Below are positions 2,524 to 52,427 of a DNA stretch of 64,000 nt, in pieces. The position numbers and the translations under genes were made by a program. The stretch's first letter is position 1. Every line of letters begins with the position of its first letter. The stretch is from a virus: the IMG/VR virus record IMGVR_UViG_3300023208_000003, positions 96,001 to 160,000 of that record; one strand, 5' to 3'. A model generated the notes under the pieces. The model was given only the letters and a program-made list of their open reading frames with translations, searched no databases and had not been told where the DNA came from.

Positions 2524-3045
2524 ATGAACCTCCTGCAAGAAATAGACCTCATCGCTGAGGAAACCAAAACCGAGAAAGACTTGGTAAAGATGTTCAAGGA
2601 CGCCAAAGACAGCGGCGCACTTAAGAACTATGTCCTTTCTGAAACCTATGACGTTCGTCCACTCAAGATAGACGAAGAAGTCAAAGTAAAATTCCCAGGA
2701 TTTACCTCTAAAACCGAAAAAGCGCAGGAAGGCGAGAGCTTGTTGCGTGTTCACGATAAACCAAATCTTCAACGCATTATTGATGAGGAAGAACTTGAAG
2801 ATAGTTACGCTCCTATTCGTCCAAATGAAAAACCAGATGCAGAAGGATTTACGCTTTATCGTAGCGTTAAAACACTTCAAGCTTTTCAATATACTGAGGA
2901 CCAACCTCTGGTCTTCCAGGGTAACGTAGGAGGCTCATTGCATGTTAAAATGAATGACTATATCGCTCGTGACGTAGCTAATCCCAAGAGAGTCCTAGTG
3001 TTTCCTGGTCCAAAGTTTGAAGACAAATATACTGAAACCAAATGA
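2524..3045 (+). CDS. hypothetical protein, probably late/virion-associated
   Basis: 173-aa ORF downstream of AATAAATAG (2488-2496). N-terminus MNLLQEIDLIAEE carries L/I-x-E motifs. Confidence 0.6.
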   Translation: MNLLQEIDLIAEETKTEKDLVKMFKDAKDSGALKNYVLSETYDVRPLKIDEEVKVKFPGFTSKTEKAQEGESLLRVHDKPNLQRIIDEEELEDSYAPIRPNEKPDAEGFTLYRSVKTLQAFQYTEDQPLVFQGNVGGSLHVKMNDYIARDVANPKRVLVFPGPKFEDKYTETK

Positions 3046-3692
3046 AAGTTCAAAAGCTAATTTCTGAGAGCCCTGGTTCTGGTTCTTTTACTATTATGTG
3101 CACTAAGCAAGTAAAAAGTAATGTTCAAATTGATATGTTTGAGCAAAATTTTAAATATCTTGCGTCACAAAATTTTAAAGATGAAACTGTTAGATTGGAT
3201 AGTTCCTCTGGTAGAATTAATGTCGGAATACAATTTAACAATTCTTCACGAACAATTTTTCCTAAAAAAGTAGCAGAAATAATTTTAAAATTTGTAACAA
3301 ATTATACTGGAAGTTCCGTGTTTCCACCAGTAAAAATGCATGTAAATTATCCAACGTTGATTTTGTTAGATTTTAGTGATCAAGATGATCGAATTGTTGA
3401 TCAAACAGTCGACAATGAACATTTAATGATTAATGGATTTACGCTCAAAGACATTCATAAACACATTAAAAATATTGATTCGATTTATTGTAATGATAAA
3501 ATCACAGATAGCGTTTTAGGTCTATTATTAATTGAACACAGTCTTCGTTGTTTTGAAGAAGTTGTAGGCGTTCCATCTTTAAATGAAGACTGGATGGAAA
3601 TAGTTAATAAACACTTAAGTGGCGATAAAGATGTTCTTGAATGTAAAACAGATTTAATTGAAAAAGGATTTCCAAAGTTGGCAAAAATATGA
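3042..3692 (+). CDS. YAKL-family paralogue 1
   Basis: N-term MKVQKLISE; C-term DSVLGLLLI...DKDVLECKTDLIEKGFPKLAKI*. Confidence 0.85.
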   Translation: MKVQKLISESPGSGSFTIMCTKQVKSNVQIDMFEQNFKYLASQNFKDETVRLDSSSGRINVGIQFNNSSRTIFPKKVAEIILKFVTNYTGSSVFPPVKMHVNYPTLILLDFSDQDDRIVDQTVDNEHLMINGFTLKDIHKHIKNIDSIYCNDKITDSVLGLLLIEHSLRCFEEVVGVPSLNEDWMEIVNKHLSGDKDVLECKTDLIEKGFPKLAKI

Positions 3693-4359
3693 AAGTCAAG
3701 CAACTTCTTCAAGAAGCTCAGCGTGGAATGTTTTACTTTACATTCAACTCAGCTCAGCTCAAACAACGTATGAAAATTCTCTCCTTCTGAAAGATGATTT
3801 ACAGGTTGCAGCAGAAAAGCTCGGTGCTGAAGTAGAGTTCATTGGACGTACTGAAGATGATGACGATGAAGGCAGACTCACGAGTAATTATGGGTTCAAG
3901 ATTTATCATCACTCAGGTGATCTTCACCCGAAACAACTTGGTATTGTTCTCAATAATCTTTATGTAAAATACACAAATGGAGATGTTGATGTAAGTAACA
4001 CAATGGTAACTCCAACAATGGGACTTCACTTGCCAGTCAATTTTCTTGTTGACTTTTCAGATGGCACAGCTACATTTGTAAATCAATTTATAAATCAATA
4101 TTTCGTAAATATTGCAGGAACCGATTTACATAATATTCACAAGCAAATTCAGCACATTGACGCAATATTTATAGATGATGATGTGAAATCGGGTGGGCTT
4201 GGACTTATGCTAGTTGAAGATTTAGTAAATGTTTCTGGGATAAAGCAAACACTTCAGTGGCGAAACATTATAACCAAGCATCTCAAAAATGAGCGCGATG
4301 TGCTTGATTGCAAAGCAGAGTTAATTGAGAAAGGGTATTCAACGCTCGCAAAACTATAA
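3689..4359 (+). pseudogene. YAKL-family paralogue 2, frameshifted near 3751-3760
   Basis: The ATGA-coupled start at 3689 (MKVKQLLQEAQ) stops at 3788-3790. The rest of the family gene (..DVLDCKAELIEKGYSTLAKL*) is in another frame. Removing one AGCTC copy at 3751-3760 restores the frame. Confidence 0.7.
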
Positions 4360-4371
4360 AAGAGAATTCAT

Positions 4372-4917
4372 ATGATAGAAGAAGAAAAAAAGAAAAGAAA
4401 GAATAGTAAAGCAAAAGGAAATGGCTTTGAAAGTAAAGTTGCAAAAATTTTAGCAGAGCACCTAGCGCCTTTAAAATTTATTCGTACCCAAAGTTCTGGA
4501 GCTCGTGTAGGTGGAAAAAACTTTGGAACAACTGGACAGCTTTTTAATCAACAGACACTTTCGCTTTTCGTGGGTGATGTGGTTGCCACAAATGATGGCG
4601 AAGACGGTCACTGGTTTAGGTTTGTAGTTGAATGCAAATTTTATAAGGAACCTGATACATTAGATCAGCTGCTTACTCGTAAAGCAAAGGTATTTGGCTG
4701 GCTGAATGAAGTTGATGTTGATAAAGTAAAGGTTGGTAAAGAAGGAATTGTCATAATGAAGTTTAATGGAAAAGATCCATTGATAGCCGTTAGACCTGAA
4801 ATTGAGCTACCTTTTAAGAATTACTTAACAATTGGGAATGCAAAGATTGGTTATCTTGCAGACGCACTAGAACACCCGGAATTCTGGTTAAAAAATGAAA
4901 ATACAACAGCTACTTGA
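4372..4917 (+). CDS. putative Holliday junction resolvase, PD-(D/E)xK family
   Basis: NSKAKGNGFESKVAKIL, SGA..G, GDVV, VVECKFYK pattern typical of phage resolvases. Confidence 0.7.
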   Translation: MIEEEKKKRKNSKAKGNGFESKVAKILAEHLAPLKFIRTQSSGARVGGKNFGTTGQLFNQQTLSLFVGDVVATNDGEDGHWFRFVVECKFYKEPDTLDQLLTRKAKVFGWLNEVDVDKVKVGKEGIVIMKFNGKDPLIAVRPEIELPFKNYLTIGNAKIGYLADALEHPEFWLKNENTTAT

Positions 4918-5567
4918 AAATCAAGAAGTTAAATCTCACTTTACAATGCATGAGATTTATCCTGAAATGTCAAAAATAAAAAGTGAGTTTGTAAATATGC
5001 CACAAGGTAAAATTTCAAAATTAATTGAAAAGAAACTCAAACTATTAAAGACGAAATATGGATTTGACGCTATTCCGACAGCTTTTTTTTAAAACTCATT
5101 CTAATGACTTTTTTTTTGGAGAGTATGGAATTACGTTTACTTTCAGTGACAGAACAGCAACAATTGATCTTACAAAACTTAGAAATGAAACCAATTTAAC
5201 TTTAGGACTATCTTCTAGAAAAAATAATTACACTACGCTCGAATTTAATTGTCCACTAAGTTTAACATTCAAAACTGATAAATCATTTAGTGAAGCATTA
5301 TGCGAATTCGCAGCAAACGGAAAAACTCTGCAGAATATTCATAAAATTATTCCTGACGTTTATAGTTTACGTGTAGTTGATACAATTGAAAGCAACGTGT
5401 TAGGGCTTGTTTTAATGAAAAAATTAGAAGCTGGGTTTATTGATTTTGGAGCATCAAATAAAGATTGGTCATTAATAGTCTGTCGTTATCTTCACAGCAA
5501 TCGTGACCTGCTTGAATGCAAAACTGAGTTAATTGAAAAAGGATTTGGAGCTTACGCAAAGCTATGA
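4895..5567 (+). pseudogene. YAKL-family paralogue 3, frameshifted at T8 tract 5083-5090
   Basis: The MKIQQLLENQE ORF stops at TAA 5090-5092 immediately after GCTTTTTTTT. The +1 frame continues to DLLECKTELIEKGFGAYAKL*. T7 would give one ORF. Confidence 0.72.
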
Positions 5568-6325
5568 AAATAAATCAATTATTTGAAGAAGTTAATCACT
5601 ACGCCACCATTCGCTTTCGTCTGAGTCCCTTTGTGGTTGATGATGAAACTGGCGAGCTTTTACCGATTAAGCGCTGGCAAAAAGACGGGGTTGACGCCTT
5701 TAACGTCGACAGTGATGCTTGGAAAGAAACACTGCAGTTGGTTAAAAACGCTAATGTTGATGGTTTAAAAATGTTCAGAATGTCTGCCCAATCAAGAAAT
5801 AATAGTGATCTTGGGTATGATTTTATTTTTTACGTGACAAAAGCAATCAACGTTGATCAAGCGCTTTTAGAGCTTCACAGTAAGATCGCTTATTACGATT
5901 CTCATTCGGAACCTAAGAAAGGGAGTGCGATGTATGTGAACTCCATCGTCTTTATTTCTCCTATTCCAGCTGGTCTTACCTTTGATGAGGAAAAAACTCG
6001 AGACTTGCAGAAGTGGAACTGGGACGGTATTGCGCTTGGCGGAAGAAGTGCTTCTGCTGCGCAAAATGAGCTTTCACTTGCAAATATCAAACACATCAAG
6101 TGCTTCAATTTATTTTTGTTCGGTAAGGTAGTAAGTAACGCGTTAGGCATTTTGCTAAATCCTACAATACGAACGCTAACTTCAGCATCAGGATTTAAAT
6201 CGCCTAATCAAGTATGGAATCCTTGGATCCCAATAGTCACTAAGCATTTAGATGGCGATAAAGACATTCTTGAGTGTAAAACAGATTTGATAGAAGCTGG
6301 TTACAAGGAACTCGCGAAAATCTAA
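5564..6325 (+). CDS. YAKL-family paralogue 4
   Basis: MKINQLFEE...DKDILECKTDLIEAGYKELAKI*; ATGA overlap with previous gene. Confidence 0.85.
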   Translation: MKINQLFEEVNHYATIRFRLSPFVVDDETGELLPIKRWQKDGVDAFNVDSDAWKETLQLVKNANVDGLKMFRMSAQSRNNSDLGYDFIFYVTKAINVDQALLELHSKIAYYDSHSEPKKGSAMYVNSIVFISPIPAGLTFDEEKTRDLQKWNWDGIALGGRSASAAQNELSLANIKHIKCFNLFLFGKVVSNALGILLNPTIRTLTSASGFKSPNQVWNPWIPIVTKHLDGDKDILECKTDLIEAGYKELAKI

Positions 6326-6326
6326 A

Positions 6327-6356
6327 TTGTACTTTTTCTTACTTTGATGTTATAAT
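6327..6356 (+). promoter_or_regulatory. sigma70-like (early/middle) promoter TTGTAC-N18-TATAAT with extended TG
   Basis: The same motif recurs at 8360-8388, 9049-9078, 58469-58497 and 59942-59970, with 17-18 nt spacers. Confidence 0.65.
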
Positions 6357-6378
6357 TTGCATTAAAATAGGGTGATTT

Positions 6379-7038
6379 ATGTCTGCTGAAGCTCCATTAC
6401 TTGGTTACGGTGCGCGCTACGCCGTAATGATAAAAAATCCGTATGAAAAAAACCCGGAACAGTTTTTATCCAAAATCTTCAAGCAGCTTGAAGTAAACGT
6501 TACTGCTGCACTTCAAGATTATCCTATCTATTCAATCAGTTTCAATGTTGAAACTGCCGGCAAATTCGTTTCATTAATAATTTTCTTTGACGATGCAGCT
6601 TTTACTATTGATATTGAAAAGCTGCACGCAACTATTTTAGATAACCTCAAAGCTTTAAATTTAAAAGTAGCAAATTCTGATAAATACTACGGAATGACGA
6701 ACTTGTATTTGCCTACAAGCATTTCAATATTTGTTTCAGATAAGATCTTTGAAACTGATAATGGAATAGTGCTGGTTTCTGGCAGGTCCCTTAGTGGAGT
6801 TCATAAACAGCTGATAAATGTCAATTGTATTATCTTACAAGACACAATCAAATCAAACATTTTAGGATTGCTTTTGATTGATAATTTAGTAGAACTTAAC
6901 TTTACAAGTAAAGAAGTTCGAGAAAGCAATCGTACTTGGACAGAGCCTTACAAGCTGGCTAGATTGGAAAAAATGGATTTGCTCGAGTTTAAAGCGATGC
7001 TCATTGAAAATGGATTATCACAATACGCGAAACTATGA
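6379..7038 (+). CDS. YAKL-family paralogue 5 (no capsid-targeting-like N-terminus)
   Basis: SLSGVHKQL...SNILGLLLI...MDLLEFKAMLIENGLSQYAKL*. Confidence 0.85.
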   Translation: MSAEAPLLGYGARYAVMIKNPYEKNPEQFLSKIFKQLEVNVTAALQDYPIYSISFNVETAGKFVSLIIFFDDAAFTIDIEKLHATILDNLKALNLKVANSDKYYGMTNLYLPTSISIFVSDKIFETDNGIVLVSGRSLSGVHKQLINVNCIILQDTIKSNILGLLLIDNLVELNFTSKEVRESNRTWTEPYKLARLEKMDLLEFKAMLIENGLSQYAKL

Positions 7039-7697
7039 AAGTACAAACATTATTAAAAGAAAACACTAATTTTGAAGGGTTTAAATACAGCTTCAGAGTG
7101 TCTGAAGAATGGCCTAGTCAGCCCCAAGATAAAGAAAAAAATATCAGTAACAGTGTTAATAGCGTAATTAAAGAACTTTATTCATTGTCGTTTTCAATAA
7201 AAGAAATTCTTTTTAATTTTGATGGAACCGAGAGAAAATTCAAAATTGAGTTTAAAGATGTTTCAGAAGTTGTTAACTTAGGTCATTTTCACGATGAAAT
7301 CAAAAAAATACTTAAGAACAATAATTTAATATTTACCATGAGTGATGAATATATTGCTAATATGACAATGATGTTTCCAGGCAAAATCGGTGTTCGTATT
7401 AGCGCATTTCAGAGAAATAACGGGTGGGCTACAGTCGTCGTATACGGTAATTCATTAAAAGATGTTCATAAAAGAATTCTTAATGCTGAAGAGCTCGTTA
7501 TTCAAAATGAAATTAACTCAAGTGTCTTAGGACTTATCTTAATGTCTGGAACGTCTATACGTTTTAGATCAAATCAAATCATTGAAGATAATCCTTGGCT
7601 TGATTTATATGTTGAAGCAATGGAGCAAAAAATGGACGTGCTTGAGTTCAAAGCGATGCTCATTGAAAATGGAATGTCACATCTGGCAAAATTATGA
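7035..7697 (+). CDS. YAKL-family paralogue 6
   Basis: MKVQTLLKE...MDVLEFKAMLIENGMSHLAKL*. Shares 24 identical nt with paralogue 5 (6991-7014 = 7650-7673). Confidence 0.85.
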   Translation: MKVQTLLKENTNFEGFKYSFRVSEEWPSQPQDKEKNISNSVNSVIKELYSLSFSIKEILFNFDGTERKFKIEFKDVSEVVNLGHFHDEIKKILKNNNLIFTMSDEYIANMTMMFPGKIGVRISAFQRNNGWATVVVYGNSLKDVHKRILNAEELVIQNEINSSVLGLILMSGTSIRFRSNQIIEDNPWLDLYVEAMEQKMDVLEFKAMLIENGMSHLAKL

Positions 7698-8359
7698 AAG
7701 TTCAAACATTACTAGAAAGTGAAGAAAGTTTACTAACCACTCCAGGCTACGCGTATGTCACATACATCTGTTCTAGTGAGTACCCAAAGGGGCTAAAAGA
7801 AATTATTGAAGAGCTCAAACATAAGATACCTTGTACAAAATTTGTAGAAAATAAAGATAGCTACATTAATGCAGAAGAAGGTGTTGAAACGTGTAAGCTT
7901 ATCTTTCACTTTGCTTCAGGTAATGTTAGTATCAAACAACTACAAACTGACATTCGAAAGATTGTTTTCAATAAATTTGATTGGAATTTCATTAGAGGGT
8001 TTGGTAGAATTGGACTTTCTTATATTAATTTTCCAACTAGTGTAGTTGTAAATTCCGATTACATTGAAATTGATGACAATGAAAACATTGATTATGCAAC
8101 TTCTTCAACTACTCTCAAAAATATTCACAAGTCAATAAAAGGAGAAATCACGTTTCTAGAACTTCATAGAGAGATTGAAGACTCAGTTTTAGGCTTATGT
8201 CTTTTAGAACACCGTGACTTTAAAATTATGTCATCAAGTTCAAAAGTAGCCGGCACAAACGTATCTTGGGTTAAGCTTTACAGAGAACATAAAGATGATC
8301 TTCTAGAGTTTAAAACTGCTCTCATTGAAGCTGGACTTCCACATCTCGCAAAAATTTAA
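7694..8359 (+). CDS. YAKL-family paralogue 7
   Basis: MKVQTLLESE...DDLLEFKTALIEAGLPHLAKI*. Confidence 0.85.
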   Translation: MKVQTLLESEESLLTTPGYAYVTYICSSEYPKGLKEIIEELKHKIPCTKFVENKDSYINAEEGVETCKLIFHFASGNVSIKQLQTDIRKIVFNKFDWNFIRGFGRIGLSYINFPTSVVVNSDYIEIDDNENIDYATSSTTLKNIHKSIKGEITFLELHREIEDSVLGLCLLEHRDFKIMSSSSKVAGTNVSWVKLYREHKDDLLEFKTALIEAGLPHLAKI

Positions 8360-8388
8360 TTGTACCTTTTTTACGCTTATGTTATAAT
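8360..8388 (+). promoter_or_regulatory. sigma70-like promoter TTGTAC-N17-TATAAT
   Basis: TTGTAC 8360-8365 and TATAAT 8383-8388, preceded by TGT; immediately upstream of ATG 8395. Confidence 0.6.
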
Positions 8389-8394
8389 AGTAAT

Positions 8395-8985
8395 ATGAGC
8401 GTAAAACTTAAGTTAACATTTTCAGCAAATGTAGATTTTTACCCATCATATACGGTAAAAATCGCGGCGGCGCTTCTTAAAGAGTTTAATGTTTCGCCTG
8501 ATCTTTGGATTTATGGTAACGCAAATTTAAATCTTGACGTTACATTCACCGATGTGCAAACTGTTAACATCAGTGAGCTAATTCATAATTATAAAAGATG
8601 TATTTTAAAAGCATTAAATCCACCAGCATCATCTTATTTAGTCTTAACCGTGATCGCGCGTAGTATCGAACTTCATGTTCCTAGCGTTACAAAAATCATA
8701 ATGGATGATAAACTTTCTGCTGGGCACAATCTTTTAAAGCTGTTTGGCACTGACTTTCATAACCTTCAAAAGGTTGCCGATCTCAACTCAACGATAGTCG
8801 TTGACATCAAGGATCACGTTAAGGCTAACGTTCTATCAATGTGTCTTCTTTCAAATTGCATGTTTAAAGTTGAAAATATTGAAAATTTAAAATGGCTTAA
8901 TTTATTTTATGATACTGATAGAGATTTATTAGCATTTAAAGCTGCTTTAATTGAGAATGGATTTTCACAATTGGCAAAAATATGA
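8395..8985 (+). CDS. YAKL-family paralogue 8 (no capsid-targeting-like N-terminus)
   Basis: ANVLSMCLL...DRDLLAFKAALIENGFSQLAKI*. Confidence 0.82.
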   Translation: MSVKLKLTFSANVDFYPSYTVKIAAALLKEFNVSPDLWIYGNANLNLDVTFTDVQTVNISELIHNYKRCILKALNPPASSYLVLTVIARSIELHVPSVTKIIMDDKLSAGHNLLKLFGTDFHNLQKVADLNSTIVVDIKDHVKANVLSMCLLSNCMFKVENIENLKWLNLFYDTDRDLLAFKAALIENGFSQLAKI

Positions 8986-9048
8986 ATATTGCTAAAGATA
9001 GTATTTTTAAACTATAGAATTTGTTCCAAAGCAATACGCTAAATTTTA

Positions 9049-9585: not shown

Positions 9586-9619
9586 AAGTTTAAGCCGTTT
9601 ATTTGTTTTGATTCTGTTT

Positions 9620-10570
9620 TTATAGAGGTGCTTGTGGGTTCCGGGACTTTTGTTCGCACCTCTCAAATCAAAACCTTAAAAAGGACTGCACGGTTAGATC
9701 AACAGTACAAGAACTGCCGTCCCCAATGATCTCACACTGCAATTAAGTGCGCGCTGAAGAGCTGACTAAAAAGATATAATTCGTAGGTGTTGCGAGCCTA
9801 TAGTTAAGTTTCTCGTTATTTTGCTAGAGAAATTAATATCGCACCAGAATGGGTTTACCAACTGGTAAAGTGGGTCTTGACAATGTAGCCTTGCCGCGAG
9901 AGCTGCCTGTAGAGGTTTGGAGGGGCTAATTCTTACACGCTGAAAGAAGCGTAAGGAATTAATAACTTAAAAAGAAGACATTGGTGCCTGGACTTGCCCT
10001 TGAGAGCCAATAGCTTGGGGCGCCGCAAGGCGAGGCCTGATAGTATCAGGTTGAATGGCAGGATAGACTAGCGCTTCCGTAAAGCCGACACGAGAAAGAA
10101 AGGATTTCTTTCAAGCTCATAAACGACCATATCGCGACAACCGTAAGGACTTTTTAATAAGAGCTTTTACGGTTGTCGTTCTGAATTTAATTCAGTCCGC
10201 CAAATCGTTCTTAGTGTGGAACGTAAAACGACGGGGATAAGTATCGAATTAGTAGTCGTCCACAAAAACCAGTCGAGAGATTGGTGTAGGCTACCTGGCA
10301 TAGCAAGCCAGCTTAAATAAATTTTGGTCGATAAACGCTTACTATTGTCACTCGATTAATCACTGAGGTAATCAGCTTGATTGGGTTCTACTGAAAATCC
10401 TGTTAATGGGTTTGGGCCGTCTTTATCTAAAAGACTTACAATAATGTCCCTATAATCCAATAACTACATAAAGCTAATTAAAAAGCTTCAATGCAGTGAT
10501 AAACGGGAGAGCGGTAGAGAGGTAGAGATATGTCCCGAGGAAGGTTATAGCTATATTCCTCAATCAGTTT
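9620..10570 (+). ncRNA. putative large structured non-coding RNA (family unassigned; ends approximate)
   Basis: No ORF of 60 aa or more over 9586-10706 in an otherwise gap-free genome. At least 8 hairpins, with GNRA loops and G-U pairs that favour the + strand. Confidence 0.55.
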
Positions 10571-10706
10571 TTAACAAAATAGATAAATTATCAAAAGAGC
10601 TTTGTTTAAATTAACCATTTTATTGGTTAGGCTTAAAAATTTGATATACTTCAAAAATCCTCAATCTTTCTGATAAATAAGTCATCACCTTTATCAGATT
10701 GTCTTA

Positions 10707-11375
10707 ATGAAAACATTCAAGCGCTTTCTAACAGAAGCACCCAAAATTTATAATTCAGATCGTCATTATCCAAACGAGGATTCTGAAGATCTAATCATAA
10801 AAGGTAATATTGAAGATAGTCCTGTTATTGATTTTAGTGACTGGGTAGAGTACGATGAGCAGTATAGTCCAGGCTGTATTGTAGAAGGAAATGTTACTGT
10901 CAGTAAAATTGATTCATTTAAAACTTGTGTTGGCGCTCCAAGTAAAATTAAAAAAACTTTAACAATTCAATATTGCAAAAATTTTATTTCATTAAAAGGG
11001 TTACCTGAAAAGATCGGCGGAAATCTTTATGGATTAAACATTCGTGGTTGTACTGCGTTGACAACTTTAGAGTATTGTCCAAAACAACTTGGCGCTTATT
11101 TTAACCTTGACGGTTGTACGAGTTTAATTAGCTTGAAGTATATGCCGAAGAAAATGGATGGAGATCTGTTTTTAACGGATTGCAAAAATTTAAAAAACAT
11201 TCTTCACGTTTTTCTAACCATTGGTATTGATGAAATTCATTACGATGCTAATCAATCTAATCTAGAACAAGCGCTTTATATTATTTGTGATCATTACTTT
11301 AAAAAAGATAGGGATTTACTTGAGTGCAAAGCTGAATTGATAGAAAGAGGATTATCAGAATATGCAAAGCTTTAA
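10707..11375 (+). CDS. YAKL-family paralogue 9, LRR-rich
   Basis: MKTFKRFLTEA. About 23-aa repeats (L.I..C..L.SL.G.P..I). DRDLLECKAELIERGLSEYAKL*. GATAAATA at 10672. Confidence 0.88.
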   Translation: MKTFKRFLTEAPKIYNSDRHYPNEDSEDLIIKGNIEDSPVIDFSDWVEYDEQYSPGCIVEGNVTVSKIDSFKTCVGAPSKIKKTLTIQYCKNFISLKGLPEKIGGNLYGLNIRGCTALTTLEYCPKQLGAYFNLDGCTSLISLKYMPKKMDGDLFLTDCKNLKNILHVFLTIGIDEIHYDANQSNLEQALYIICDHYFKKDRDLLECKAELIERGLSEYAKL

Positions 11376-12000
11376 ATCATATCTTCAGGAAGAAGATCCT
11401 CCAAGAATTTTCTTTGATCCTAATTATACTTTTTACGATAAGAATGACATTCATTCAATGCGTGATTTAATTCACATACAGCCTGATTATGTTACAGGGT
11501 GCATCATCAAAAATGATTTTGATATCAGCGGTTTGAAAAATATTAAGAGTTGGGATGACGGTCCATCGTATATAGCAGGAACGTTATATGCTGCAGACAC
11601 TGGTTTTACTACGCTAAAAGGAATGCCAAAATATATTGGTTCTGATATTAATCTTCGTATGTGTATGGGATTAACTACTCTTGAAGGGTGTGTTCAAGAG
11701 TGTAATGGGTATTTTGCTATTTCAAATTGTGTTAATCTAGTTTCATTAAAGTGGATGCCTAAGAAAATAACAGGAATTTTATTAATACGATTCTGTCATT
11801 CGCTAAGAGGTATTCTTTCTATTTTACTCTGTGATGGAATAATTGCAATCAAAGATGAAATTACAACAAATCAAAATAACGCGCAGCTACGTGAAGCCAT
11901 GCGAATTGTAAAAGATCATTATTTTAATCAAGATAGAGATATTCTTGAATGTAAAGCAGAACTAATTGAAAATGGATTAGGTGAGTATGCAAAGCTTTAA
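11362..12000 (+). CDS. YAKL-family paralogue 10, LRR-rich
   Basis: MQSFKSYLQEE; repeats; DRDILECKAELIENGLGEYAKL*. Confidence 0.88.
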   Translation: MQSFKSYLQEEDPPRIFFDPNYTFYDKNDIHSMRDLIHIQPDYVTGCIIKNDFDISGLKNIKSWDDGPSYIAGTLYAADTGFTTLKGMPKYIGSDINLRMCMGLTTLEGCVQECNGYFAISNCVNLVSLKWMPKKITGILLIRFCHSLRGILSILLCDGIIAIKDEITTNQNNAQLREAMRIVKDHYFNQDRDILECKAELIENGLGEYAKL

Positions 12001-12619
12001 ATCATTCCTAAATGAAGAAACTCATACAATTCGCTTTGATATTGGCGTTCCTGAATCTGTTGAAGATTTAGCTGAACTTACTGAGGTTTATAATAAAGGA
12101 CCTCAAATATACGTTCCTGGCTGTAAAATTGAAGGTGCATTTTTTGCTACTAATTCTAAAATTAAAAATTTTAAAAATGGTCCATCATACGTTCGTAAGG
12201 AAATTATGGCTGATAGATGTCGAGAGCTTGAATCTCTTGAAGGTATGTGCGATTCAGGTAGCTATGTTTCGCTTGAACGTTGTGATAAGCTTACAACGCT
12301 CGAACATATTCCAAACGTAATTCAAGGCTGGTTGAATATTAATTTTTGCTCAAGCTTAGAAACTCTCAAGCATTTTCCAAAAGCGATTATGGGTGCACTT
12401 TACATTCGTGAGTGCAACGAGATTAGAAATGTGATGCGGCTTTTGATGTGTCATCAAATTTTTAGATTCGATTTTGAAAAAGACTTTCCAGAAAATCCTC
12501 AACTGTCCGAAGCTCTTACAATTATAGCAAAAAATTATAAAAAGTCAGGCGATGCTGATATTCTTGAATGTAAAGCAGAACTAATTGAAAATGGACTAAG
12601 TGATTACGCGAAACTATAA
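11987..12619 (+). CDS. YAKL-family paralogue 11, LRR-rich
   Basis: MQSFKSFLNEE (ATG 11987, 14-nt overlap); DADILECKAELIENGLSDYAKL*. Confidence 0.88.
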   Translation: MQSFKSFLNEETHTIRFDIGVPESVEDLAELTEVYNKGPQIYVPGCKIEGAFFATNSKIKNFKNGPSYVRKEIMADRCRELESLEGMCDSGSYVSLERCDKLTTLEHIPNVIQGWLNINFCSSLETLKHFPKAIMGALYIRECNEIRNVMRLLMCHQIFRFDFEKDFPENPQLSEALTIIAKNYKKSGDADILECKAELIENGLSDYAKL

Positions 12620-18582: not shown

Positions 18583-18650
18583 TAACAAAAGTTTGAAAAA
18601 CGCTAAATATAACTAACTAGAATTTTCGCCTATTTAAAGGAATTACAACT

Positions 18651-19262: not shown

Positions 19263-19288
19263 AAATATAACACATAGGAGCATAAAAA

Positions 19289-19474
19289 ATGAGTGACGAA
19301 AATAAAGAAAAACTTCATTCAGTACTTCGTGATCTAATTAAAGATGAATCGACTACTGCGTCAGCAACTCTTCATGATTACTTTTCGTCCAAGTCTAGAG
19401 AAGTTCTAGGTTTTGGTGAAAAAGATGCAAGTAGTTCAAGAATCGATGACAAAAATGACTTAGAAGACGAATAA
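19289..19474 (+). CDS. small acidic prohead core protein (gp67/gp68-like position)
   Basis: 61-aa acidic ORF between protease and scaffold, with GGAG RBS. Confidence 0.5.
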   Translation: MSDENKEKLHSVLRDLIKDESTTASATLHDYFSSKSREVLGFGEKDASSSRIDDKNDLEDE

Positions 19475-19507
19475 TTACTCATTTTTTACACTGCATTTTT
19501 GAACCTG

Positions 19508-19582: not shown

Positions 19583-19595
19583 GGAGATTAGCACT

Positions 19596-20495: not shown

Positions 20496-20520
20496 TTTCC
20501 AAGTTAGAGGAGAATTTACT

Positions 20521-34219: not shown

Positions 34220-34223
34220 ATCA

Positions 34224-42777: not shown

Positions 42778-43430
42778 CATCATTCAAAACATACTTTAAA
42801 CAAGATGACACTGTTGATTCACCAAAACAAATTGAGAATTATCTAAGAAATAATTGGAAATTCAATTTTGACGCTGGAAATATCAAAATTGACCTATTAA
42901 AAAAAGAAGTTTTTGGTTCAAACTTTTCACTGACTGTTACCGAGGAAAATTTAGCTAATGTCAATGGTAAAAAAGTAATTCCAGTAAAATTTTCTACTGT
43001 TGCTAACTTTCAACATATCAACAAACATACTGAAAGTTTTACATTAGAATACGCGCCACACACAACTATAGATCATTGGTACGCGATTGATCCATATTTT
43101 AATAATATTGAATACTTACCTCAATATTCAACTATGATTGATATTTCTCAATGTTTAAATTTTAAATCTCTTCATAATATTCATAAAAGAGTAAAGCGAA
43201 CTCACGTTGTTACGCTGTGCAATATGATTGAAAGTTCAATGCTAGGGCTAATGTTAATTCCTGAACTAGGACAAGTTGAGTTTATAAATTTTATAAGTTC
43301 AGGAACTTCAAATGATACGATTTCCACTTTAACAAATACCTTTCGAAAAGCGCTAGAAACAAGCGTCGATGTTTTAGATGTTAAAGCTGAACTAATTGAA
43401 AAAGGATTATCAGAGTTTGCGAAGCTCTAA
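42774..43430 (+). CDS. YAKL-family paralogue 19
   Basis: MTSFKTYFKQ; FKSLHNIHKRV; VDVLDVKAELIEKGLSEFAKL*. Confidence 0.87.
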   Translation: MTSFKTYFKQDDTVDSPKQIENYLRNNWKFNFDAGNIKIDLLKKEVFGSNFSLTVTEENLANVNGKKVIPVKFSTVANFQHINKHTESFTLEYAPHTTIDHWYAIDPYFNNIEYLPQYSTMIDISQCLNFKSLHNIHKRVKRTHVVTLCNMIESSMLGLMLIPELGQVEFINFISSGTSNDTISTLTNTFRKALETSVDVLDVKAELIEKGLSEFAKL

Positions 43431-43465
43431 AATAAATAAGAAAAACACAATTTGGAGCATATCAA

Positions 43466-44143
43466 ATGCGAATAAACGATCTCGTAAACGAACAAATTAT
43501 TGCTGAAGTACACCAGGAGGAAAACCTGGTAGCGCAGTATCACAACGCTGAAGAGTATGAAGGGAATATAAGCATGTCAGGACGTCACCTGACATCACTC
43601 AGAGGAGCCCCGAAGATAGTCAATGGAAACTTTGACGTTAATGAAAATCCTCTTTTAAAGACACTGCGCTTTGCACCAATCCACATAACTGGTAGATTTA
43701 ACGCTAATGATTGTGATATTCAATCATTGCGCGGCTGTACAACAAAAACAATTGGTGAGCTATTTACTATATCAAAAAATTCTTTTAGATCAGTTGATGA
43801 TTTAATGGGGGCTCCTGAAGATATTGGCTCACTTCACATGTGTTTTGGAATGAACTTTACTTCACTAAGCGGAATTCATAAAGCGTTTAAATGCGTCAAT
43901 GATACGATTTTTATTCCAGAAAAATCAACTCACGTGCTTGCATTAGCTTTTATTAAAAACCTTAAACACGTTGTTATTGGTTCATTGCCATCTGATCAGA
44001 AATTAAATACTGACCTTGGTAAGGTAATAAAGATTTTGAATGATCATTTAAAAACTGGTTCAATTGATATGCTTGATGTAAAGACTGAAATTATTGAAAC
44101 TTATTCAGGTCAGCCTGAAATTCTTGCGCTTGCAAAGGTATAA
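43466..44143 (+). CDS. YAKL-family paralogue 20, canonical LRR and divergent C-terminus
   Basis: MRINDLVNE; LTSLRGAPKIVNGNFDV-type repeats; IDMLDVKTEIIETYSGQPEILALAKV*; own AATAAATA at 43431. Confidence 0.8.
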   Translation: MRINDLVNEQIIAEVHQEENLVAQYHNAEEYEGNISMSGRHLTSLRGAPKIVNGNFDVNENPLLKTLRFAPIHITGRFNANDCDIQSLRGCTTKTIGELFTISKNSFRSVDDLMGAPEDIGSLHMCFGMNFTSLSGIHKAFKCVNDTIFIPEKSTHVLALAFIKNLKHVVIGSLPSDQKLNTDLGKVIKILNDHLKTGSIDMLDVKTEIIETYSGQPEILALAKV

Positions 44144-44146
44144 ACA

Positions 44147-45136
44147 ATGAAACTAATTGAAATAACTGAATCTAGCAAAGTCTATAATTTTAAAAATGTT
44201 GAAGATACTATTAAACGACTTACTCCAGAAGAATTTGAAGCGGCAATTCGATTCGCAAAAAAGCAGCCAGAGTTTAAAGCGCTTTTAGCAGCTGGTTATG
44301 ATTTTGCTTCGTCTGAAAATCAGCTTAAGAAAGGAATTTTAAGTTTTAAATTTGCGCATATTTCAAAAACTGACGCTGGCCAAGCAATATCTGACAACAC
44401 TGCACGTTCAGTAATTTACCCAAACGGCAATGTTCGTTTAATGTGGGATAGCGGCGACCATGCAACAACTATTTCAATTCCAGGTATTGGTAGAAATCTA
44501 ACTGAACGTTATAAAATCGGACTTCAAGCTCTTGTACGAGTTGCTAATAAGCGCGCTAAGCTCAGACAAGAGCTAGGCGTTGTCCATGGGTTAACCAATC
44601 TTTCTAAAATTGATACATCTCATCAAGCTTTAAATCAAATAACTTTTGATCGTTGTTCATTTAAGGATTTTAAAACTCTTGATCCCAATTTTAATGGCAT
44701 AATGAAAATTATCAGCCACAAAGTTGACCTTTCAATGGTTGGCTGCGCAGTTAAGAGTCAACATTTAGATGAACTAAGAATACAAGAAGGCAAAAACGTA
44801 ATTGATCTCGATAAATTACCGGAACGTATCGACATTTTAGATTTATCTGAATCAAACATTATAAGTTTAAAAGGAATCGGAAAAAGTTTAAGATATTGTG
44901 ATAAGTTTTACTTTTCGCCTAAAATACAGGATAGCATTTTAGGTATAATGAACATTCAATGGATTTCAACTTATAAAGATGTTAAAGTAAATAGATTTAC
45001 TATAGCATTTGAAAAAAACAAATTATTAGCTGATGCAATTGGAATCTTAATGACAAATTACCACAACAAAGCAGATATTTTAGATTGTAAAGCTGAGCTG
45101 ATTGAAGCTGGGTTAGGGCAGTATGCCAAACTTTAA
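44147..45136 (+). CDS. YAKL-family paralogue 21
   Basis: MKLIEITE; ADILDCKAELIEAGLGQYAKL*. Confidence 0.87.
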   Translation: MKLIEITESSKVYNFKNVEDTIKRLTPEEFEAAIRFAKKQPEFKALLAAGYDFASSENQLKKGILSFKFAHISKTDAGQAISDNTARSVIYPNGNVRLMWDSGDHATTISIPGIGRNLTERYKIGLQALVRVANKRAKLRQELGVVHGLTNLSKIDTSHQALNQITFDRCSFKDFKTLDPNFNGIMKIISHKVDLSMVGCAVKSQHLDELRIQEGKNVIDLDKLPERIDILDLSESNIISLKGIGKSLRYCDKFYFSPKIQDSILGIMNIQWISTYKDVKVNRFTIAFEKNKLLADAIGILMTNYHNKADILDCKAELIEAGLGQYAKL

Positions 45137-45749
45137 AGAATTTTTCAAATATAATCCTCGTGAACCCGCTCTTTGGATGTATGCTGAAAGACAAGACGTT
45201 TTAGACTGGCTTTGGCAGGCAGCTCCGCATAAAACGCAATTTGACGTAAATGATGATCTGATTGTTTTTTCAAAAGACGATTTCCAGCTCGAAGATAACG
45301 TAATAACAGCATTGCCAGTTCGTTTAGATACTCCAAAAAAATTAGTATTGAAAATGAAAAATTTACAAACTTTACGAGGTATACCAGAAGGCGTAATGTA
45401 TGGAACTTTAATAATCGCTTCTGATAAATTAACAGAGCTTGATTATTTGCCATATAGCGTGTCTTCATTGAATATAATAGATTGCCCAAATGTTCATTCG
45501 CTTCATGGAATTCACGATAAGGTTAAACGAATGACGATGATTATTGTTGGTGAAGGAATTGAAAGCTCAATTCTTGGTCTTCTAACAATTAAAGATTTTT
45601 CAGGAATGATGACTAATACATCTAATTCTAACGCTTCGCTAAATAAAGCTTGTCAGATTTTAAATGCTGCAATTATTCATAAGCAAGATTTACTTGATTG
45701 CAAAGCAGAACTAATTGAAAAAGGATTATCAACATATGCTAAGCTTTAG
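45123..45749 (+). CDS. YAKL-family paralogue 22
   Basis: MPNFKEFFK; QDLLDCKAELIEKGLSTYAKL*. Confidence 0.87.
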   Translation: MPNFKEFFKYNPREPALWMYAERQDVLDWLWQAAPHKTQFDVNDDLIVFSKDDFQLEDNVITALPVRLDTPKKLVLKMKNLQTLRGIPEGVMYGTLIIASDKLTELDYLPYSVSSLNIIDCPNVHSLHGIHDKVKRMTMIIVGEGIESSILGLLTIKDFSGMMTNTSNSNASLNKACQILNAAIIHKQDLLDCKAELIEKGLSTYAKL

Positions 45750-46413
45750 AGATTATTTAAAAGAAGAAAAACTAACAGGCTTCTTAGATACAAGAGAGGC
45801 AGTTAAACAATACATGCAGGATAATTTTTCACTCATTTCATATTCATTTAATGATTATGAAGATGATCCTGATATTGTAGAAGTTAATTTAGAGTTAACT
45901 CCACGAATAACTTTTACAAATGAACATTTACGTAAAACTGGCAGCCAATATCATCTTCCATTTAAAATTGGAGAAATTACTAATTTAGTTATTAACGCGC
46001 CGAAGTTAAATTCTACTGAAGGTTTTCCAAATTCAGCAGGACGTATTTTAATTTTAGATATGGATTTACACGAGCTGAATCACGATATTGTATTCAATGT
46101 TGGTGATTTATGCTTACGCGGCACTTATCTCATAACGTTAACAGGAATTCATAACTCCTGTCCTCATGGAGTTAGTGAGTTAGAATTTCCAAAAGGACTA
46201 CAGGGAAACGTTTTAGATTTAGCGCGTCTAGATAATCTTGACAGTGTAAGCGTTGCGCCGCATGCAATGCGACTTTCAGATGAAATTTGGAATGAACAAG
46301 TTCGTTTGGCGGCCACTATTAATGATTATCTTAGTGAATCTCGTGGTCTTGATTTATTAGAACTAAAAGCTACTCTTATTGATAATGGATTTTCAAAGTA
46401 TGCCAAGATTTAA
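45736..46413 (+). CDS. YAKL-family paralogue 23
   Basis: MLSFRDYLKEE (ATG 45736); LDLLELKATLIDNGFSKYAKI*. Confidence 0.86.
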   Translation: MLSFRDYLKEEKLTGFLDTREAVKQYMQDNFSLISYSFNDYEDDPDIVEVNLELTPRITFTNEHLRKTGSQYHLPFKIGEITNLVINAPKLNSTEGFPNSAGRILILDMDLHELNHDIVFNVGDLCLRGTYLITLTGIHNSCPHGVSELEFPKGLQGNVLDLARLDNLDSVSVAPHAMRLSDEIWNEQVRLAATINDYLSESRGLDLLELKATLIDNGFSKYAKI

Positions 46414-47086
46414 AGAATTTTTAAAAGAAGAAACTGAATCACATTACTTTAAAAATAAAGACGCCGTACTAGATTGGTTTAGCGATTATGTTGAAACACT
46501 TGAAACTCCTGATATTAAAGTAAATAATAAAGGAGTTTTTTATGTAGCCGATGATTCAATGGATTTTACTCTTAATCCTGGTTGTTCAGTTCCTGTAACT
46601 TGGAATGGAAGAAAAGTTTATGGTTTACCAGTTAAAATAGAAGAAGCCCGTGATTTTATTGTTAAAGATGGAAGATTAAATTCAACAGTAGGATTTCCTG
46701 ATCTTGTAGATAATATTGTCCATTATCCATATGGTTTTCCTTGTGGTTTAACTGAATTTAACGACGCTGTATTTTTTCCGATGTGTAATCTTAAGTTGTC
46801 TGGAACTCAAATTAAAACATTAAGAGGTATTCATACTTCTTGTGACGCCGGTCTTGGCGATCTTTGGTTACCATTTGAACTTGACGGCCCGGTTCTTGAC
46901 ATTACAAAGCTTGAAGGTCTTAATATGGTAAGAATCGATAAAAAAATTCATCCGGCTCATTCAGATTATTTTAGATACAAGACACTTACTGAAACTATAA
47001 ATCTTGTTCTTGAAGACGGTTTTGACGCGCTTGATTTAAAAGCTGCGCTTATTGAAAAAGGATTAAGTCAATATGCGAAGTTTTAA
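46400..47086 (+). CDS. YAKL-family paralogue 24
   Basis: MPRFKEFLKEE (ATG 46400); FDALDLKAALIEKGLSQYAKF*. Clearly closest to paralogue 23. Confidence 0.86.
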   Translation: MPRFKEFLKEETESHYFKNKDAVLDWFSDYVETLETPDIKVNNKGVFYVADDSMDFTLNPGCSVPVTWNGRKVYGLPVKIEEARDFIVKDGRLNSTVGFPDLVDNIVHYPYGFPCGLTEFNDAVFFPMCNLKLSGTQIKTLRGIHTSCDAGLGDLWLPFELDGPVLDITKLEGLNMVRIDKKIHPAHSDYFRYKTLTETINLVLEDGFDALDLKAALIEKGLSQYAKF

Positions 47087-47726
47087 GCAATTTTTAGCTG
47101 ATGAAGAAGTCGACAGTTGCTTTTTAACATTTGTAATGCAATTCAGCAAGCTTTATAATTCGCCTGAAGACTCAGAAGCGGAACGAATTGTTAGAGAAGC
47201 GTTTGAGCCTGTTTTTTCAAAGTATCACATTGAAAAAATGATTCCTTCTAAAGTAAACAAGCTTGGCGGCTTTTATTCTATAGTGCTTGTGATAGCTGAA
47301 GGGGCTCATTTAAATGTAAAAGATTTAGTTAATGAATTGACATTGTTGTATAAAGAAAAAATTGGTTCATATTCAGTTTTTGAACCTAACCCCTGGGCCG
47401 CTAGTTTGTATGTTAATCTTCCAACGTCATCAGTGTTTGATTGTGATTTTGAAGCTTTTATTACTCGTGTTAATAATAAAACTGCTAAAAATATTCACAA
47501 AACACTTTTGAATCTTGAACATCTAATGTTTCAAGATTCACTTTTTAATGGTCCGGTACTTGGAACGATGTTAATGCCGCATCTTAAAAGCGTTGGTCTT
47601 GAATTTCATTTAGAGCCGCCTGATTGGATCAAAATAATTAATGCGCAGCTTAAAGGCGATCGTGATTTGCTTGAGTGCAAGACACAACTAATTGAGGCTG
47701 GCTACGCTGAAATGGCTAAAATTTAA
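47073..47726 (+). CDS. YAKL-family paralogue 25
   Basis: MRSFKQFLADEE; DRDLLECKTQLIEAGYAEMAKI*. Confidence 0.87.
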   Translation: MRSFKQFLADEEVDSCFLTFVMQFSKLYNSPEDSEAERIVREAFEPVFSKYHIEKMIPSKVNKLGGFYSIVLVIAEGAHLNVKDLVNELTLLYKEKIGSYSVFEPNPWAASLYVNLPTSSVFDCDFEAFITRVNNKTAKNIHKTLLNLEHLMFQDSLFNGPVLGTMLMPHLKSVGLEFHLEPPDWIKIINAQLKGDRDLLECKTQLIEAGYAEMAKI

Positions 47727-49972: not shown

Positions 49973-50066
49973 AGAATTACTTTAAAATCAAAATAAATAT
50001 ATTTTATCAACATTTCATTTGGTTGTACATTGAAATAAATAGATCATATTATTTTAGGAGAATTTT

Positions 50067-51311
50067 ATGTCTCTAGATTTTTCAGGAATTGTAGGTGGTA
50101 CCGGTATTGATCTTGAACGAACAGCAGCTGCTGTTTTTGGTCAAGCGGTTGATATTTACGCTAATCAGCAAATAAATCGAATTTTTAGCGGGCCGACGTC
50201 TGGTGAAATAACGTCACATTCTAGACCACCATATGGATTATGGGATCCAGCTTCTTACGCTGAGGATCTTGTTGCGTTTCAACCAAAACACCGCTTTCTT
50301 TTTAAGGTGATGTTTGATGTTGAACCTCAGTATCTAAATCTTTTTAAGAACCATTCTGGACAATCAGCTTTCCAATATATGGTTAAATCTATTCAACGTC
50401 CTACAATAACGTATGAATATGAAGACGTTAACTTTTACAACTTTCGTACAAAGTTTTTAAAGTCAATAAAGCACGGTGAACTTCAGTTAACATTAATTGA
50501 CGATATTCAAAATACGCTTCACGTATTTTTAGGTGAATATATTAGAGCGTTTTCTCCAATCAATCGTTCGGCCGCCCCCGCTAGTCCAATAATGTATGAT
50601 ACTGCTGGTTTTAACTTCACGGATCCTGCAGGCGTCGGGCAAGTAGATTCATCAGTACGCGGCGTATTAAAGAAAGCTAATTCTGATAATTCAATTAACC
50701 CACTCAAGTCAATAAAGATTATTCAGTTCTTTGGTCACGCAGCATGGTATAATACATTTACGCTAATTAATCCACGCGTTACATCAATCAATTATGATGA
50801 CGCATCTCATGAAGGTGGCGATCCTGGAAATCACGTAACTCTTAACTTTGATTATGACGCGCTCTATCTTGATCAAACTGTTGACTTTATCGGAGCTCCT
50901 CCGTACCCAGCCCCAAAGTCAGACATTTACGGATCAATAAATGATAGAACAATAAAAGCAGCATCGTTTAATGATAGCTTTGATCCAGCCACTGGCAGAC
51001 AAACAAGCGGTTTTGGTGTTGCACAAAGTGTTTTAGGTACTTTGCTTGGAAACGTTGGCTCAAGAATAGCGTCAAATGCAATTCAGCGAGTTACTCAAGG
51101 AGTGCTTGGGTCAAGCAATCCAATGATTGCAGGTGTGCTTGGAAATCTTGGTTATGGTGTTTCAAGTCAAGTAGGTGATATGGCTCGCCGAACAATCGGT
51201 AATACAGTGAACGGCGTTAGTCCTGGATTTATAGCGCCAAATCGTCCAGCTGTTATTGACAATAGTTCAATCAATCAAACAACTACACAACGTTACAATA
51301 ATTTATTCTAA
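50067..51311 (+). CDS. tail tube-related baseplate/tube initiator protein (gp48/gp54-like)
   Basis: Tube-like fold motifs F.F.V.F, VKSI.RP.I.Y....N.YN, L.LT..DD, V...NYDD; Gly/Asn-rich tail. Confidence 0.55.
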   Translation: MSLDFSGIVGGTGIDLERTAAAVFGQAVDIYANQQINRIFSGPTSGEITSHSRPPYGLWDPASYAEDLVAFQPKHRFLFKVMFDVEPQYLNLFKNHSGQSAFQYMVKSIQRPTITYEYEDVNFYNFRTKFLKSIKHGELQLTLIDDIQNTLHVFLGEYIRAFSPINRSAAPASPIMYDTAGFNFTDPAGVGQVDSSVRGVLKKANSDNSINPLKSIKIIQFFGHAAWYNTFTLINPRVTSINYDDASHEGGDPGNHVTLNFDYDALYLDQTVDFIGAPPYPAPKSDIYGSINDRTIKAASFNDSFDPATGRQTSGFGVAQSVLGTLLGNVGSRIASNAIQRVTQGVLGSSNPMIAGVLGNLGYGVSSQVGDMARRTIGNTVNGVSPGFIAPNRPAVIDNSSINQTTTQRYNNLF

Positions 51312-51781
51312 TGAGCACAAAAACTACAATTCTTCCGTTAGAGCAAACCTTTAATATTGAAGCTGGCTCAACGCGCGCTTTACAAAACGTTTTAGAAGAA
51401 GATGATCAGATGATGGCGATATCACAAGCGACTGCAAATGAAGTCGCTCCTTATCAGGACGATGCTGAAGATAAAGAAATTGCAGAGCAAATTAAAACAA
51501 TTTATGACGCTGCAATGGACGCCTTCGATAACCAAACACAACTTGTTGAAGTTGTTGAGCCACGATACGCCGCCCGACTTGGTGAAATCGCTAATCAAAG
51601 TTTAAATACGGCTTTAAATGCAGTTGCTCTTCGTTCTAAAAATAAGAATGAAAAGCGAAAAACTGCAGCATTTGTGCCTTTTGCTAATCAAAGCAATCAA
51701 ACTAACATTGTAATGGCAAGTCGAAATGATTTGCTTAAAATGATTAAGGACAGAAAGGAAGTAATAATCGATGCAGAATAA
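51311..51781 (+). CDS. terminase small subunit (T4 gp16-like)
   Basis: Helical EPRYAARLGEIANQ.L segment and C-terminal NQTNIVMASRNDLLKMI; upstream of terL. Confidence 0.65.
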   Translation: MSTKTTILPLEQTFNIEAGSTRALQNVLEEDDQMMAISQATANEVAPYQDDAEDKEIAEQIKTIYDAAMDAFDNQTQLVEVVEPRYAARLGEIANQSLNTALNAVALRSKNKNEKRKTAAFVPFANQSNQTNIVMASRNDLLKMIKDRKEVIIDAE

Positions 51782-52427
51782 ATCGTTAAAGCAATTTCTA
51801 TGTGAAGATGAAAATTTAACTCTTGAGAGGGGTGTTGAAGTTTTGCAAATGCTTTTTGGTGATCAATTTGTTATTGACGGTGATAGAGTCAACTCTACTC
51901 AAAGTTTATCATTGAATTTTTCACATAAACGCTGGTTCAAAGGAACACACATGCCTGTAAAATTTGGCAAAATTCAAGGTAATTTTAATGTAACAAATAT
52001 GGATTTTAATTACAATAAAGAACTACCAATTTACGTTAAAGGAAATTGTTATCTCACTAGTAATGGATTTAAAACCATTGAGCATTTTCCTGAGTATATA
52101 GGCGCAATTCTTTCAATTTACGATAATCCAGAAATAAAAACGTATTCTAACATTCACAAACACGTAAAATATTGTGGAAAGGGAATAGTAATTGATCCTC
52201 TTCACTGCCCATATCTTGGTTTTCTTTTAGTTAAAGATAACTTATCAATTTTTAACATCAAATCATATTTAACTTTTGATATTTCAGTAGTAATGGGCGA
52301 CCCTCATAATGAAGAAGCTTTTCAAGCAAAGCAAATCATTAACGATTACAAAGTTAAAAACGGCGATTTACTTGATTGCAAAGCTGAATTAATAGAACAA
52401 GGACTTACAGAGTTTGCGAAAATATAA
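51771..52427 (+). CDS. YAKL-family paralogue 26, inserted between terS and terL
   Basis: MQNKSLKQFLCED; TYSNIHKHV; GDLLDCKAELIEQGLTEFAKI*. Confidence 0.86.
   Translation: MQNKSLKQFLCEDENLTLERGVEVLQMLFGDQFVIDGDRVNSTQSLSLNFSHKRWFKGTHMPVKFGKIQGNFNVTNMDFNYNKELPIYVKGNCYLTSNGFKTIEHFPEYIGAILSIYDNPEIKTYSNIHKHVKYCGKGIVIDPLHCPYLGFLLVKDNLSIFNIKSYLTFDISVVMGDPHNEEAFQAKQIINDYKVKNGDLLDCKAELIEQGLTEFAKI

Follow-up and report, generated by a model that had tools for sequence, protein, structure and literature searches.

A large family of leader-bearing proteins with a shared C-terminal module in T4-like jumbo phages

Why would a phage keep so many genes whose products vary over much of their length and yet end alike? 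The question is raised by a stretch of viral DNA of 64,000 nucleotides (the window: positions 96,001 to 160,000 of IMG/VR record IMGVR_UViG_3300023208_000003), in which a reading of the sequence alone had listed 26 genes that share a C-terminal module and occupy roughly 17-18 kb. Every one of them lies where that sequence-only reading had put it, and their summed length is 18.2 kb. Positions are given in window coordinates unless marked 'genome'.

The family is unnamed and is expanded within one lineage, the T4-like jumbo phages related to RsoM2USA. Injected internal proteins are a phage's first move against host defences, and few of them (T4 IPI*, IPIII and Alt) have been given functions. We assign a probability of about 0.5 to the reading in which the members are binders of host proteins, ejected from the head, with the tail as a cap and perhaps a handle. 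Leucine-rich repeats (LRRs), a classic binding scaffold, are rarely reported in phages. The family comprises at least 1,877 sequence clusters and takes up as much as about 25 kb of a genome.

A shared module in one clade of jumbo phages

A hidden Markov model (HMM) was built from the last 75 residues of the members and used to search the proteins of the genome. The 26 listed genes score E 1e-17 to 1e-26 in-sample, eight additional members outside the window score 2e-6 to 5e-23 out-of-sample, and the best non-family match has E 0.1, a clean gap to background. A second search confirmed the total of 34 members in this genome. Two of the 26, at 3689 and 4895, are not intact open reading frames (ORFs): their leader and body lie in different frames. 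Nor is there the single array that had been described; the genes form five clusters (3042-8985, 10707-12619, 27636-29573, 38920-47726 and 51771) inserted among T4-like morphogenesis genes. Paralogues within the genome are mostly 20-40% identical.

The impression that the family had no name was borne out. Searches of Pfam, PHROGs, NCBIfam and PADLOC returned no family for the shared module, only LRR matches in a few homologues (5 of 92 with NCBIfam). A PDB sequence search with the module gave no match, and the nearest ESM Atlas clusters are unnamed viral ones, the tail region having no usable named match. Literature searches, partial in coverage, found no description of the family. Among 1.84 billion proteins the module profile matches 1,877 clusters (50% identity), with no characterised family covering the module, and it stands at the C-terminus in every one of the 150 matches listed.

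Genomes of the same size differ eightfold in copy number: RsoM2USA and G005 have five copies each, G002 has 14, this genome 34 or more and G003 39, and fragments of 30-47 kb hold 10-17. The RsoM2USA members (ORFs 88, 89, 90 and 240, and one at 47.8 kb) are annotated as hypothetical and were never described as a family. The module was not found in XacN1, Xoo-sp13, GAP32, Vibrio phage SRILMA or a 735-kb phage, the last two of which carry similar LRR repeats without it; its absence from XacN1, Xoo-sp13 and GAP32 makes it a marker of the RsoM2USA-related clade. Where context was read in other genomes, most members have late genes around them or form long tandem rows. One such stretch, in a complete 360-kb phage (G003:C1:279975-306096), has more than 30 copies in near-continuous ATGA-linked rows over 26 kb.

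The window is part of a contig of 197,099 bp with a CheckV completeness of 55%, so the whole phage genome should measure about 350 kb. T4-like genes are present for portal, protease, scaffold, capsid, neck, sheath, tube and terminase. The T4-type prohead protease, scaffold and capsid that accompany internal head proteins of the T4 type are all encoded by the phage itself, and with the portal they form a gp20/21/22/23-like set at 16933-21747. The capsid protein matches those of T4-like jumbo phages; the nearest isolate is Ralstonia jumbo phage RsoM2USA (61.5%), and identity to the capsid proteins of uncultured phages of 342-360 kb is 62-77%. Since the early promoters are of the sigma70 type, the host is likely a bacterium. 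A close relative (L001), two contigs of 219 and 107 kb with ~79% nucleotide identity, has a portal Pfam match and core genes collinear with those of the window phage, and comes from a metagenome-assembled genome labelled Nitrosotenuis. An archaeal origin was rejected because these contigs carry T4-like portal, sheath and neck genes; we infer that the label is a binning artefact. Contigs 1 and 2 of GCA_038824965.1 (L001, L066-L068) are the largest in this Candidatus Nitrosotenuis sp. assembly, yet they are a closely related T4-like jumbo phage, and the database names of its proteins mislead.

A leader, a variable part and a constant end

The N-termini had been described as variable. The N-terminal domain is indeed divergent, but the very N-terminus is a conserved leader of about ten residues, either type A (M-K-L/I/V-x-x-L-x-E) or type B (M-x-x-F-K-x-F-L-x-E). 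A leader is present in 29 of the 34 members against 8 of 148 other ORFs (P 2e-21, for a pattern chosen after looking) and in 116 of 136 members of other genomes; hydrophobic-x-E within residues 4-14 occurs in 111 of 133 against 35 of 148. The type-B consensus F-K-x-(F/Y)-L-x-E matches, by pattern, the starts of IPI, IPII and IPIII in the T4 record. In sequence, then, the leader resembles the T4 capsid-targeting sequence, which loads proteins into the prohead and is then cleaved off (PMC9958956). That it is a mere by-product of gene overlap was considered and rejected, as the leader extends past the overlap and also occurs at ATGA junctions and cluster heads. The same or a similar leader begins several proteins outside the family (23117-24238 on the minus strand of the window; genome 17732-18466, 18770-19138, 39923-42196 and 188593-188928), and these are candidates for further packaged proteins. 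By eye, RsoM2USA ORF438, reported in virions, starts like the gene at genome 39923.

Are the members packaged? RsoM2USA ORF89 is a family member (E 3e-10) with a type-B leader and a computed mass of 28.56 kDa. By liquid chromatography-tandem mass spectrometry Ahmad et al. identified ten virion bands, one of them ORF89 (28.57 kDa), and their list also includes ORF86 and ORF132 (PMC8504454). ORF86 is the orthologue of a MoxR ATPase encoded in the window, and ORF132 carries a type-B leader. This is one low-depth experiment, independent of the argument from leader sequences. We consider it likely that members are packaged inside the head.

Degenerate LRRs had been reported throughout the family. 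In one large class, to which 100 of the roughly 150 compared proteins belong, they form a solenoid; about half of the members have such a variable part in full (12 of 26 in one BLAST cluster), but the others do not, retaining two to three coils. In most non-LRR members the variable part is a predicted alpha/beta domain, and these N domains are mostly singletons in sequence. The AlphaFold model of member 11362 (predicted local distance difference test, pLDDT, 92) is an LRR solenoid with a three-helix cap, and a structural search with it returned nearly all LRR-type proteins in the top 50 (best Z 11.5, root-mean-square deviation 3.1 over 149). By profile, the nearest solved sequences are the substrate-binding LRRs of SspH/IpaH effectors and internalins (SspH2, E 1.6e-12). 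The model of member 47073 (pLDDT 82) joins a ferredoxin-like alpha/beta domain to a short LRR and the same helical cap; fold searches with it gave generic ferredoxin-like matches only (best Z 8.3, a SEA domain). The two models thus share the scaffold that the sequence-only reading had expected. The constant end is real but longer than the ~70 residues claimed: about 85 residues, made of two to three LRR coils and three helices with identical architecture in both models, which are predicted to cap the solenoid. Some longer homologues (P0186, P0172, P0127, L060:16393-17850) have extra N-terminal domains or are fusions of two units, with a tail inside the chain; HExxH-like and YHGT-like motifs seen by eye in the N-terminal domains of longer homologues were not confirmed by Pfam.

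The tail proper is genome-specific. At one tail position, 90% of the copies in this genome have Lys but 100% of seven other sets have Gln; best matches of the N domain cross genomes in 39 of 72 cases. We built FastTree trees of 131 proteins from eight genome sets and counted changes of genome label. There were 13 for the last 25 residues, 47 for the adjoining 55 and about 80 with shuffled labels (within the LRR class, 11 for the tail, 21 for the N part and 29 shuffled), a contrast inflated by the noisier alignment and noisier trees of divergent regions. Codon identity in the tail is 54% against 47% expected. Either recombination homogenises the tails or they co-evolve with one partner per phage; the last 25 residues hint at a docking tag or at tail swapping. 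Among 73 longer relatives with the same LRR type, 67 lack the family tail, which is therefore not required merely as a cap.

The tail also links the genes. An ATAAATA late-type promoter sits 30-50 nt ahead of structural genes, and 30 of the 34 members lie within ATAAATA-promoter units common with structural genes. Four members follow sigma70-type promoters; the two directly behind them (6379 and 8395) are the only full-length members without a leader and so serve as an internal control for its meaning. In 22 of the 34 members the tail overlaps the following start codon, as ATGA or by 14 nt, in which case the terminal Y-A-K-L-stop reads M-x-x-F-K in the +1 frame. Of 86 junctions in other genomes, 74 obey these two rules. 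Even without an overlap the tail residues persist, encoded by synonymous codons, and are therefore selected as protein; the tail Tyr switches between TAT and TAC, being TAC in 7 of 7 copies without overlap in this genome (P 5e-4), a rule not strict elsewhere. Such a dual-coded tail/start junction is an unusual, general means of chaining paralogues. The early-promoter cassette is repeated at 6327-6356, 8360-8388 and 58469; the relative lacks the block between cassettes, 6379-8985, which points to its promoter-mediated insertion or loss.

Turnover and possible function

How does the repertoire change? About 11 of 33 comparable members have an intact orthologue in the close relative; the rest are missing, internally deleted, split or replaced there, one being a 45-residue leader-plus-tail relic. 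Copies turn over by duplication, tail and domain shuffling, deletion and frameshift, and are individually dispensable. Retained orthologues are under purifying selection: the ratio of nonsynonymous to synonymous substitution rates (dN/dS) is 0.11-0.23 in the eight measurable pairs, with dN about twice that of other genes. The sequence-only reading had foreseen copies that differ between related phages under diversifying selection on their N-terminal part. The copies do differ, but N- and C-terminal parts evolve equally fast (dN 0.243 and 0.249) and such selection is not seen at gene level. With few intact orthologues and low dN/dS, the repertoire evolves by birth-and-death and shuffling, not by ongoing hypermutation. 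What stands of the proposed binder repertoire is the binding-type LRR fold and the rapid gain and loss, joined by the reported virion association of a homologue; the suggested docking role has indirect backing in the genome-specific tail. The diversity stems from a long-standing variety of domains, from shuffling and from the turnover of genes.

If the members are ejected binders, the sequence of events would be as follows. Most member genes, chained head to tail, would be transcribed late and translated in a coupled fashion. The leader would load the products into the prohead core, and a gp21-type protease would, as in T4, remove it after (L/I)xE. The members would leave the head together with the DNA, and the variable LRR face, or a swapped-in alpha/beta domain, would bind a protein of the host. 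That protein would most likely be a defence or early-response factor that varies among strains, by analogy with GmrSD, the target of T4 IPI*. The coils and helices would cap the solenoid and the last 25 residues would probably be a shared handle. Counter-defence would be the likeliest purpose by T4 precedent: IPI* acts against GmrSD, IPIII is needed on one E. coli strain, and both are counter-defence proteins (PMC9958956; 10.1101/2022.04.14.488369).

Several observations weigh against this reading. The family is not homologous to the T4 internal proteins. Overlap with the upstream tail dictates part of the type-B leader, although the leader runs on beyond the overlap and is also found where there is none. 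Two members have no leader and seem to be expressed early. The virion evidence concerns one homologue, from excised gel bands worded as 'most likely correspond' in a list that includes a putative transposase. No positive selection was detected in a whole-gene test at dS 1.2-3, near saturation.

Known systems offer partial parallels. T4 IPI, IPII, IPIII and Alt have a common leader of ~10 residues (F/Y-K/Q-x-F-x-x-E), belong to a gp21/gp22/gp23 head, are virion-associated (here, as reported for one homologue) and are non-essential and variable between phages, as the family is. Beyond the leader, the mature sequence has no HMM or BLAST match to IPI, IPII or IPIII; unlike them, the family has 5-39 paralogues, an LRR scaffold, a constant genome-specific tail, arrays interlocked in translation and a leader of a second type. 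The head paralogue families of SPN3US/phiKZ-like phages, A and B, are likewise large, vary in copy number among relatives and are of unknown function (PMC5694885). Those phages are a different lineage, and SPN3US propeptides are mostly long. Pfam (PF12699 for family A) and PHROG give no match between our family and A or B, remote homology being possible, and tblastn against 50,697 records gives none to SPN3US/phiKZ-like phages. The family thus works like the T4 internal proteins and recalls SPN3US family B, homologous to neither. IpaH/SspH/SlrP LRR-NEL effectors and internalins have related repeats and are paralogous delivered proteins with a variable LRR and a constant C-terminal part. The IpaH/SspH match covers the repeats only (profile 12-158), and our family is phage-encoded; Pfam and NCBIfam find no NEL ligase domain, the proteins ending 45 residues past the last coil in helices with no catalytic motif shown. 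The repeats are kin to those LRRs, without the other domains. Poxvirus ankyrin-PRANC/F-box proteins and giant-virus LRR-F-box adaptors also combine a variable repeat binder with a short constant terminal module in a large paralogue family. The parallel is an analogy; a bacterial host has no ubiquitin system, and no F-box match was found in members.

That analogy leads to an alternative we regard as unlikely: the members, dozens of LRR or alpha/beta binders loaded by the leader, would be virion-delivered modular adaptors, whose variable part picks a host substrate and whose constant, phage-specific tail of 25 residues docks on one phage-encoded, co-packaged machine that unfolds or destroys many host defence proteins at infection. 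If true, this would be a prokaryotic-virus counterpart of the F-box adaptor families. One concrete candidate for the machine, loosely linked, is the pair formed by a MoxR AAA+ ATPase and a metallopeptidase-VWA protein. Genome-specific tails, unnecessary just for capping, fit such docking; the MoxR orthologue and a family member were both reported in RsoM2USA virions; and members flank the pair in four of five genomes, with the MIDAS motif intact. Yet G005 no longer shows this adjacency and the close relative retains little of it, and with many scattered copies adjacency comes cheap. Such pairs also occur more broadly among jumbo phages, where they are proposed to be assembly chaperones (PMC7824862), and tail-swapping recombination explains the tail and codon figures without a partner, tree noise accounting for some of the contrast. 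The VWA protein itself carries a short leader whose final (I/L/N)xE is followed by a conserved A-F; the conservation of this leader in five phages suggests processing by the prohead protease and packaging.

Would the proteins need a target at all? They could be structural filler of the head core, like T4 gp67/gp68 or SPN3US family B, serving core shape or DNA packing interchangeably while the variable part drifts. Leader, late context and virion presence fit this equally well, as does purifying without positive selection, and SPN3US family B does comprise 20 head paralogues of unknown function (PMC5694885). We nevertheless think it just as doubtful as the adaptors, given well-folded LRR and alpha/beta domains maintained by purifying selection, two leaderless members behind early promoters, the eightfold copy-number variation and the extra N-terminal domains of some homologues, with their unconfirmed motifs. 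Slightly less probable again is a nearly neutral cassette that chains itself, the tail overlapping the next start and giving recombination homology while copies multiply and decay with little benefit each. The frequent overlaps, here and elsewhere, and the many broken copies and the relic in the relative speak for it; the low dN/dS of retained orthologues, a tail conserved as protein even in copies without overlap and the large cost of 18 kb in a 64-kb window speak against it. Least credible, and improbable in our view, are adhesins or receptor-binding decorations on the surface of head or tail. The internalin-like LRR fold, the virion presence and clusters adjoining neck, baseplate and tail genes agree with that idea, but the leader resembles an internal-packaging signal, fibre, Ig and trimerisation features are absent, and most members have only ~200 residues. 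Ejected binders of host proteins thus remain our preferred reading. Since RsoM2USA, with five copies of which one was seen in virions, is in culture, direct tests can address packaging and ejection, the targets, and what the tail does; pull-downs with members could uncover new defence systems, and leader and tail may serve as loading signals.

Members and neighbouring genes along the window

All members in the window are on the plus strand. The first cluster opens at 3042-3692 (216 residues, with a type-A leader and a non-LRR N domain; stop and next start overlap as ATGA). The two frameshifted members follow: 3689-4359 has a 5-bp tandem duplication at 3750-3759 and an intact orthologue of 221 residues in the relative, and 4895-5567 has a run of eight T at 5083-5090, which may reflect natural slippage or an assembly error. 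Member 5564-6325 (253 residues, type-A leader; orthologue 77% identical, dN/dS 0.11) precedes a sigma70-type (early) promoter-like site at 6327-6356, with the consensus found before early genes elsewhere in the genome. Immediately behind it comes leaderless 6379-7038 (219 residues), then 7035-7697 (220) and 7694-8359 (221), both with type-A leaders; a second such site at 8360-8388 immediately precedes leaderless 8395-8985 (196). These four members are absent in the relative. Between this cluster and the next is a 1.1-kb ORF-free gap (9586-10706), 75-77% identical to the relative at both ends by blastn and without an Rfam match at E 0.1; it is possibly a structured RNA.

The second cluster is of LRR class throughout. 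Member 10707-11375 has a type-B leader and its own late-type promoter, ATAAATA, 33 nt upstream; its counterpart in the relative is internally deleted (91 residues). Member 11362-12000 (212 residues) starts within the preceding tail by a 14-nt overlap, and 11987-12619 (210) has a 74% identical orthologue (dN/dS 0.12). The third cluster lies in the neck (gp13/14-gp15) operon: 27636-28361 (241 residues, type-B leader), LRR-class 28348-28920 (190; nearest ESM Atlas clusters are unnamed Uroviricota proteins) and 28917-29573 (218, non-LRR N domain), whose stop overlaps the gp15-like start and which is broken in the relative.

Ahead of the fourth cluster, on the plus strand, stand the double AAA+ MoxR-type ATPase gene (34224-36848; 43% to RsoM2USA ORF86) and the gene of its metallopeptidase-VWA partner (36863-38923). 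LRR-class member 38920-39699 (259 residues) follows directly, with only a fragment in the relative, then 39686-40333 (215, type-B leader) and the LRR-class members 40330-41274 (314, type-A leader) and 41271-42239 (322). The tail of the last gives an in-frame start for a non-family gene, a TnsA-like (gp4-like) nuclease. Spread of the family by nucleases inside the clusters was rejected: the TnsA-like gp4-type and PDDEXK_15 genes are conserved single-copy neighbours. Four more LRR-class members are 42774-43430 (218; orthologue 71%), 43466-44143 (225, with a divergent tail and its own late-type promoter), 44147-45136 (329) and 45123-45749 (208; orthologue 55%, dN/dS 0.12). Members 45736-46413 (225) and 46400-47086 (228, type-B leader from a 14-nt overlap) are sisters, and 47073-47726 (217) has the ferredoxin-like N domain modelled above.

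The last member, LRR-class 51771-52427 (218 residues; orthologue 60%), lies between small-terminase-like and terminase genes. The terminase gene beyond it (52493-55028) is in two pieces, with intein-like segments and an HNH gene between them, and metallophosphoesterase, GT4-type glycosyltransferase and SCO1/SenC-like genes, identified by eye, occupy 55077-58430.

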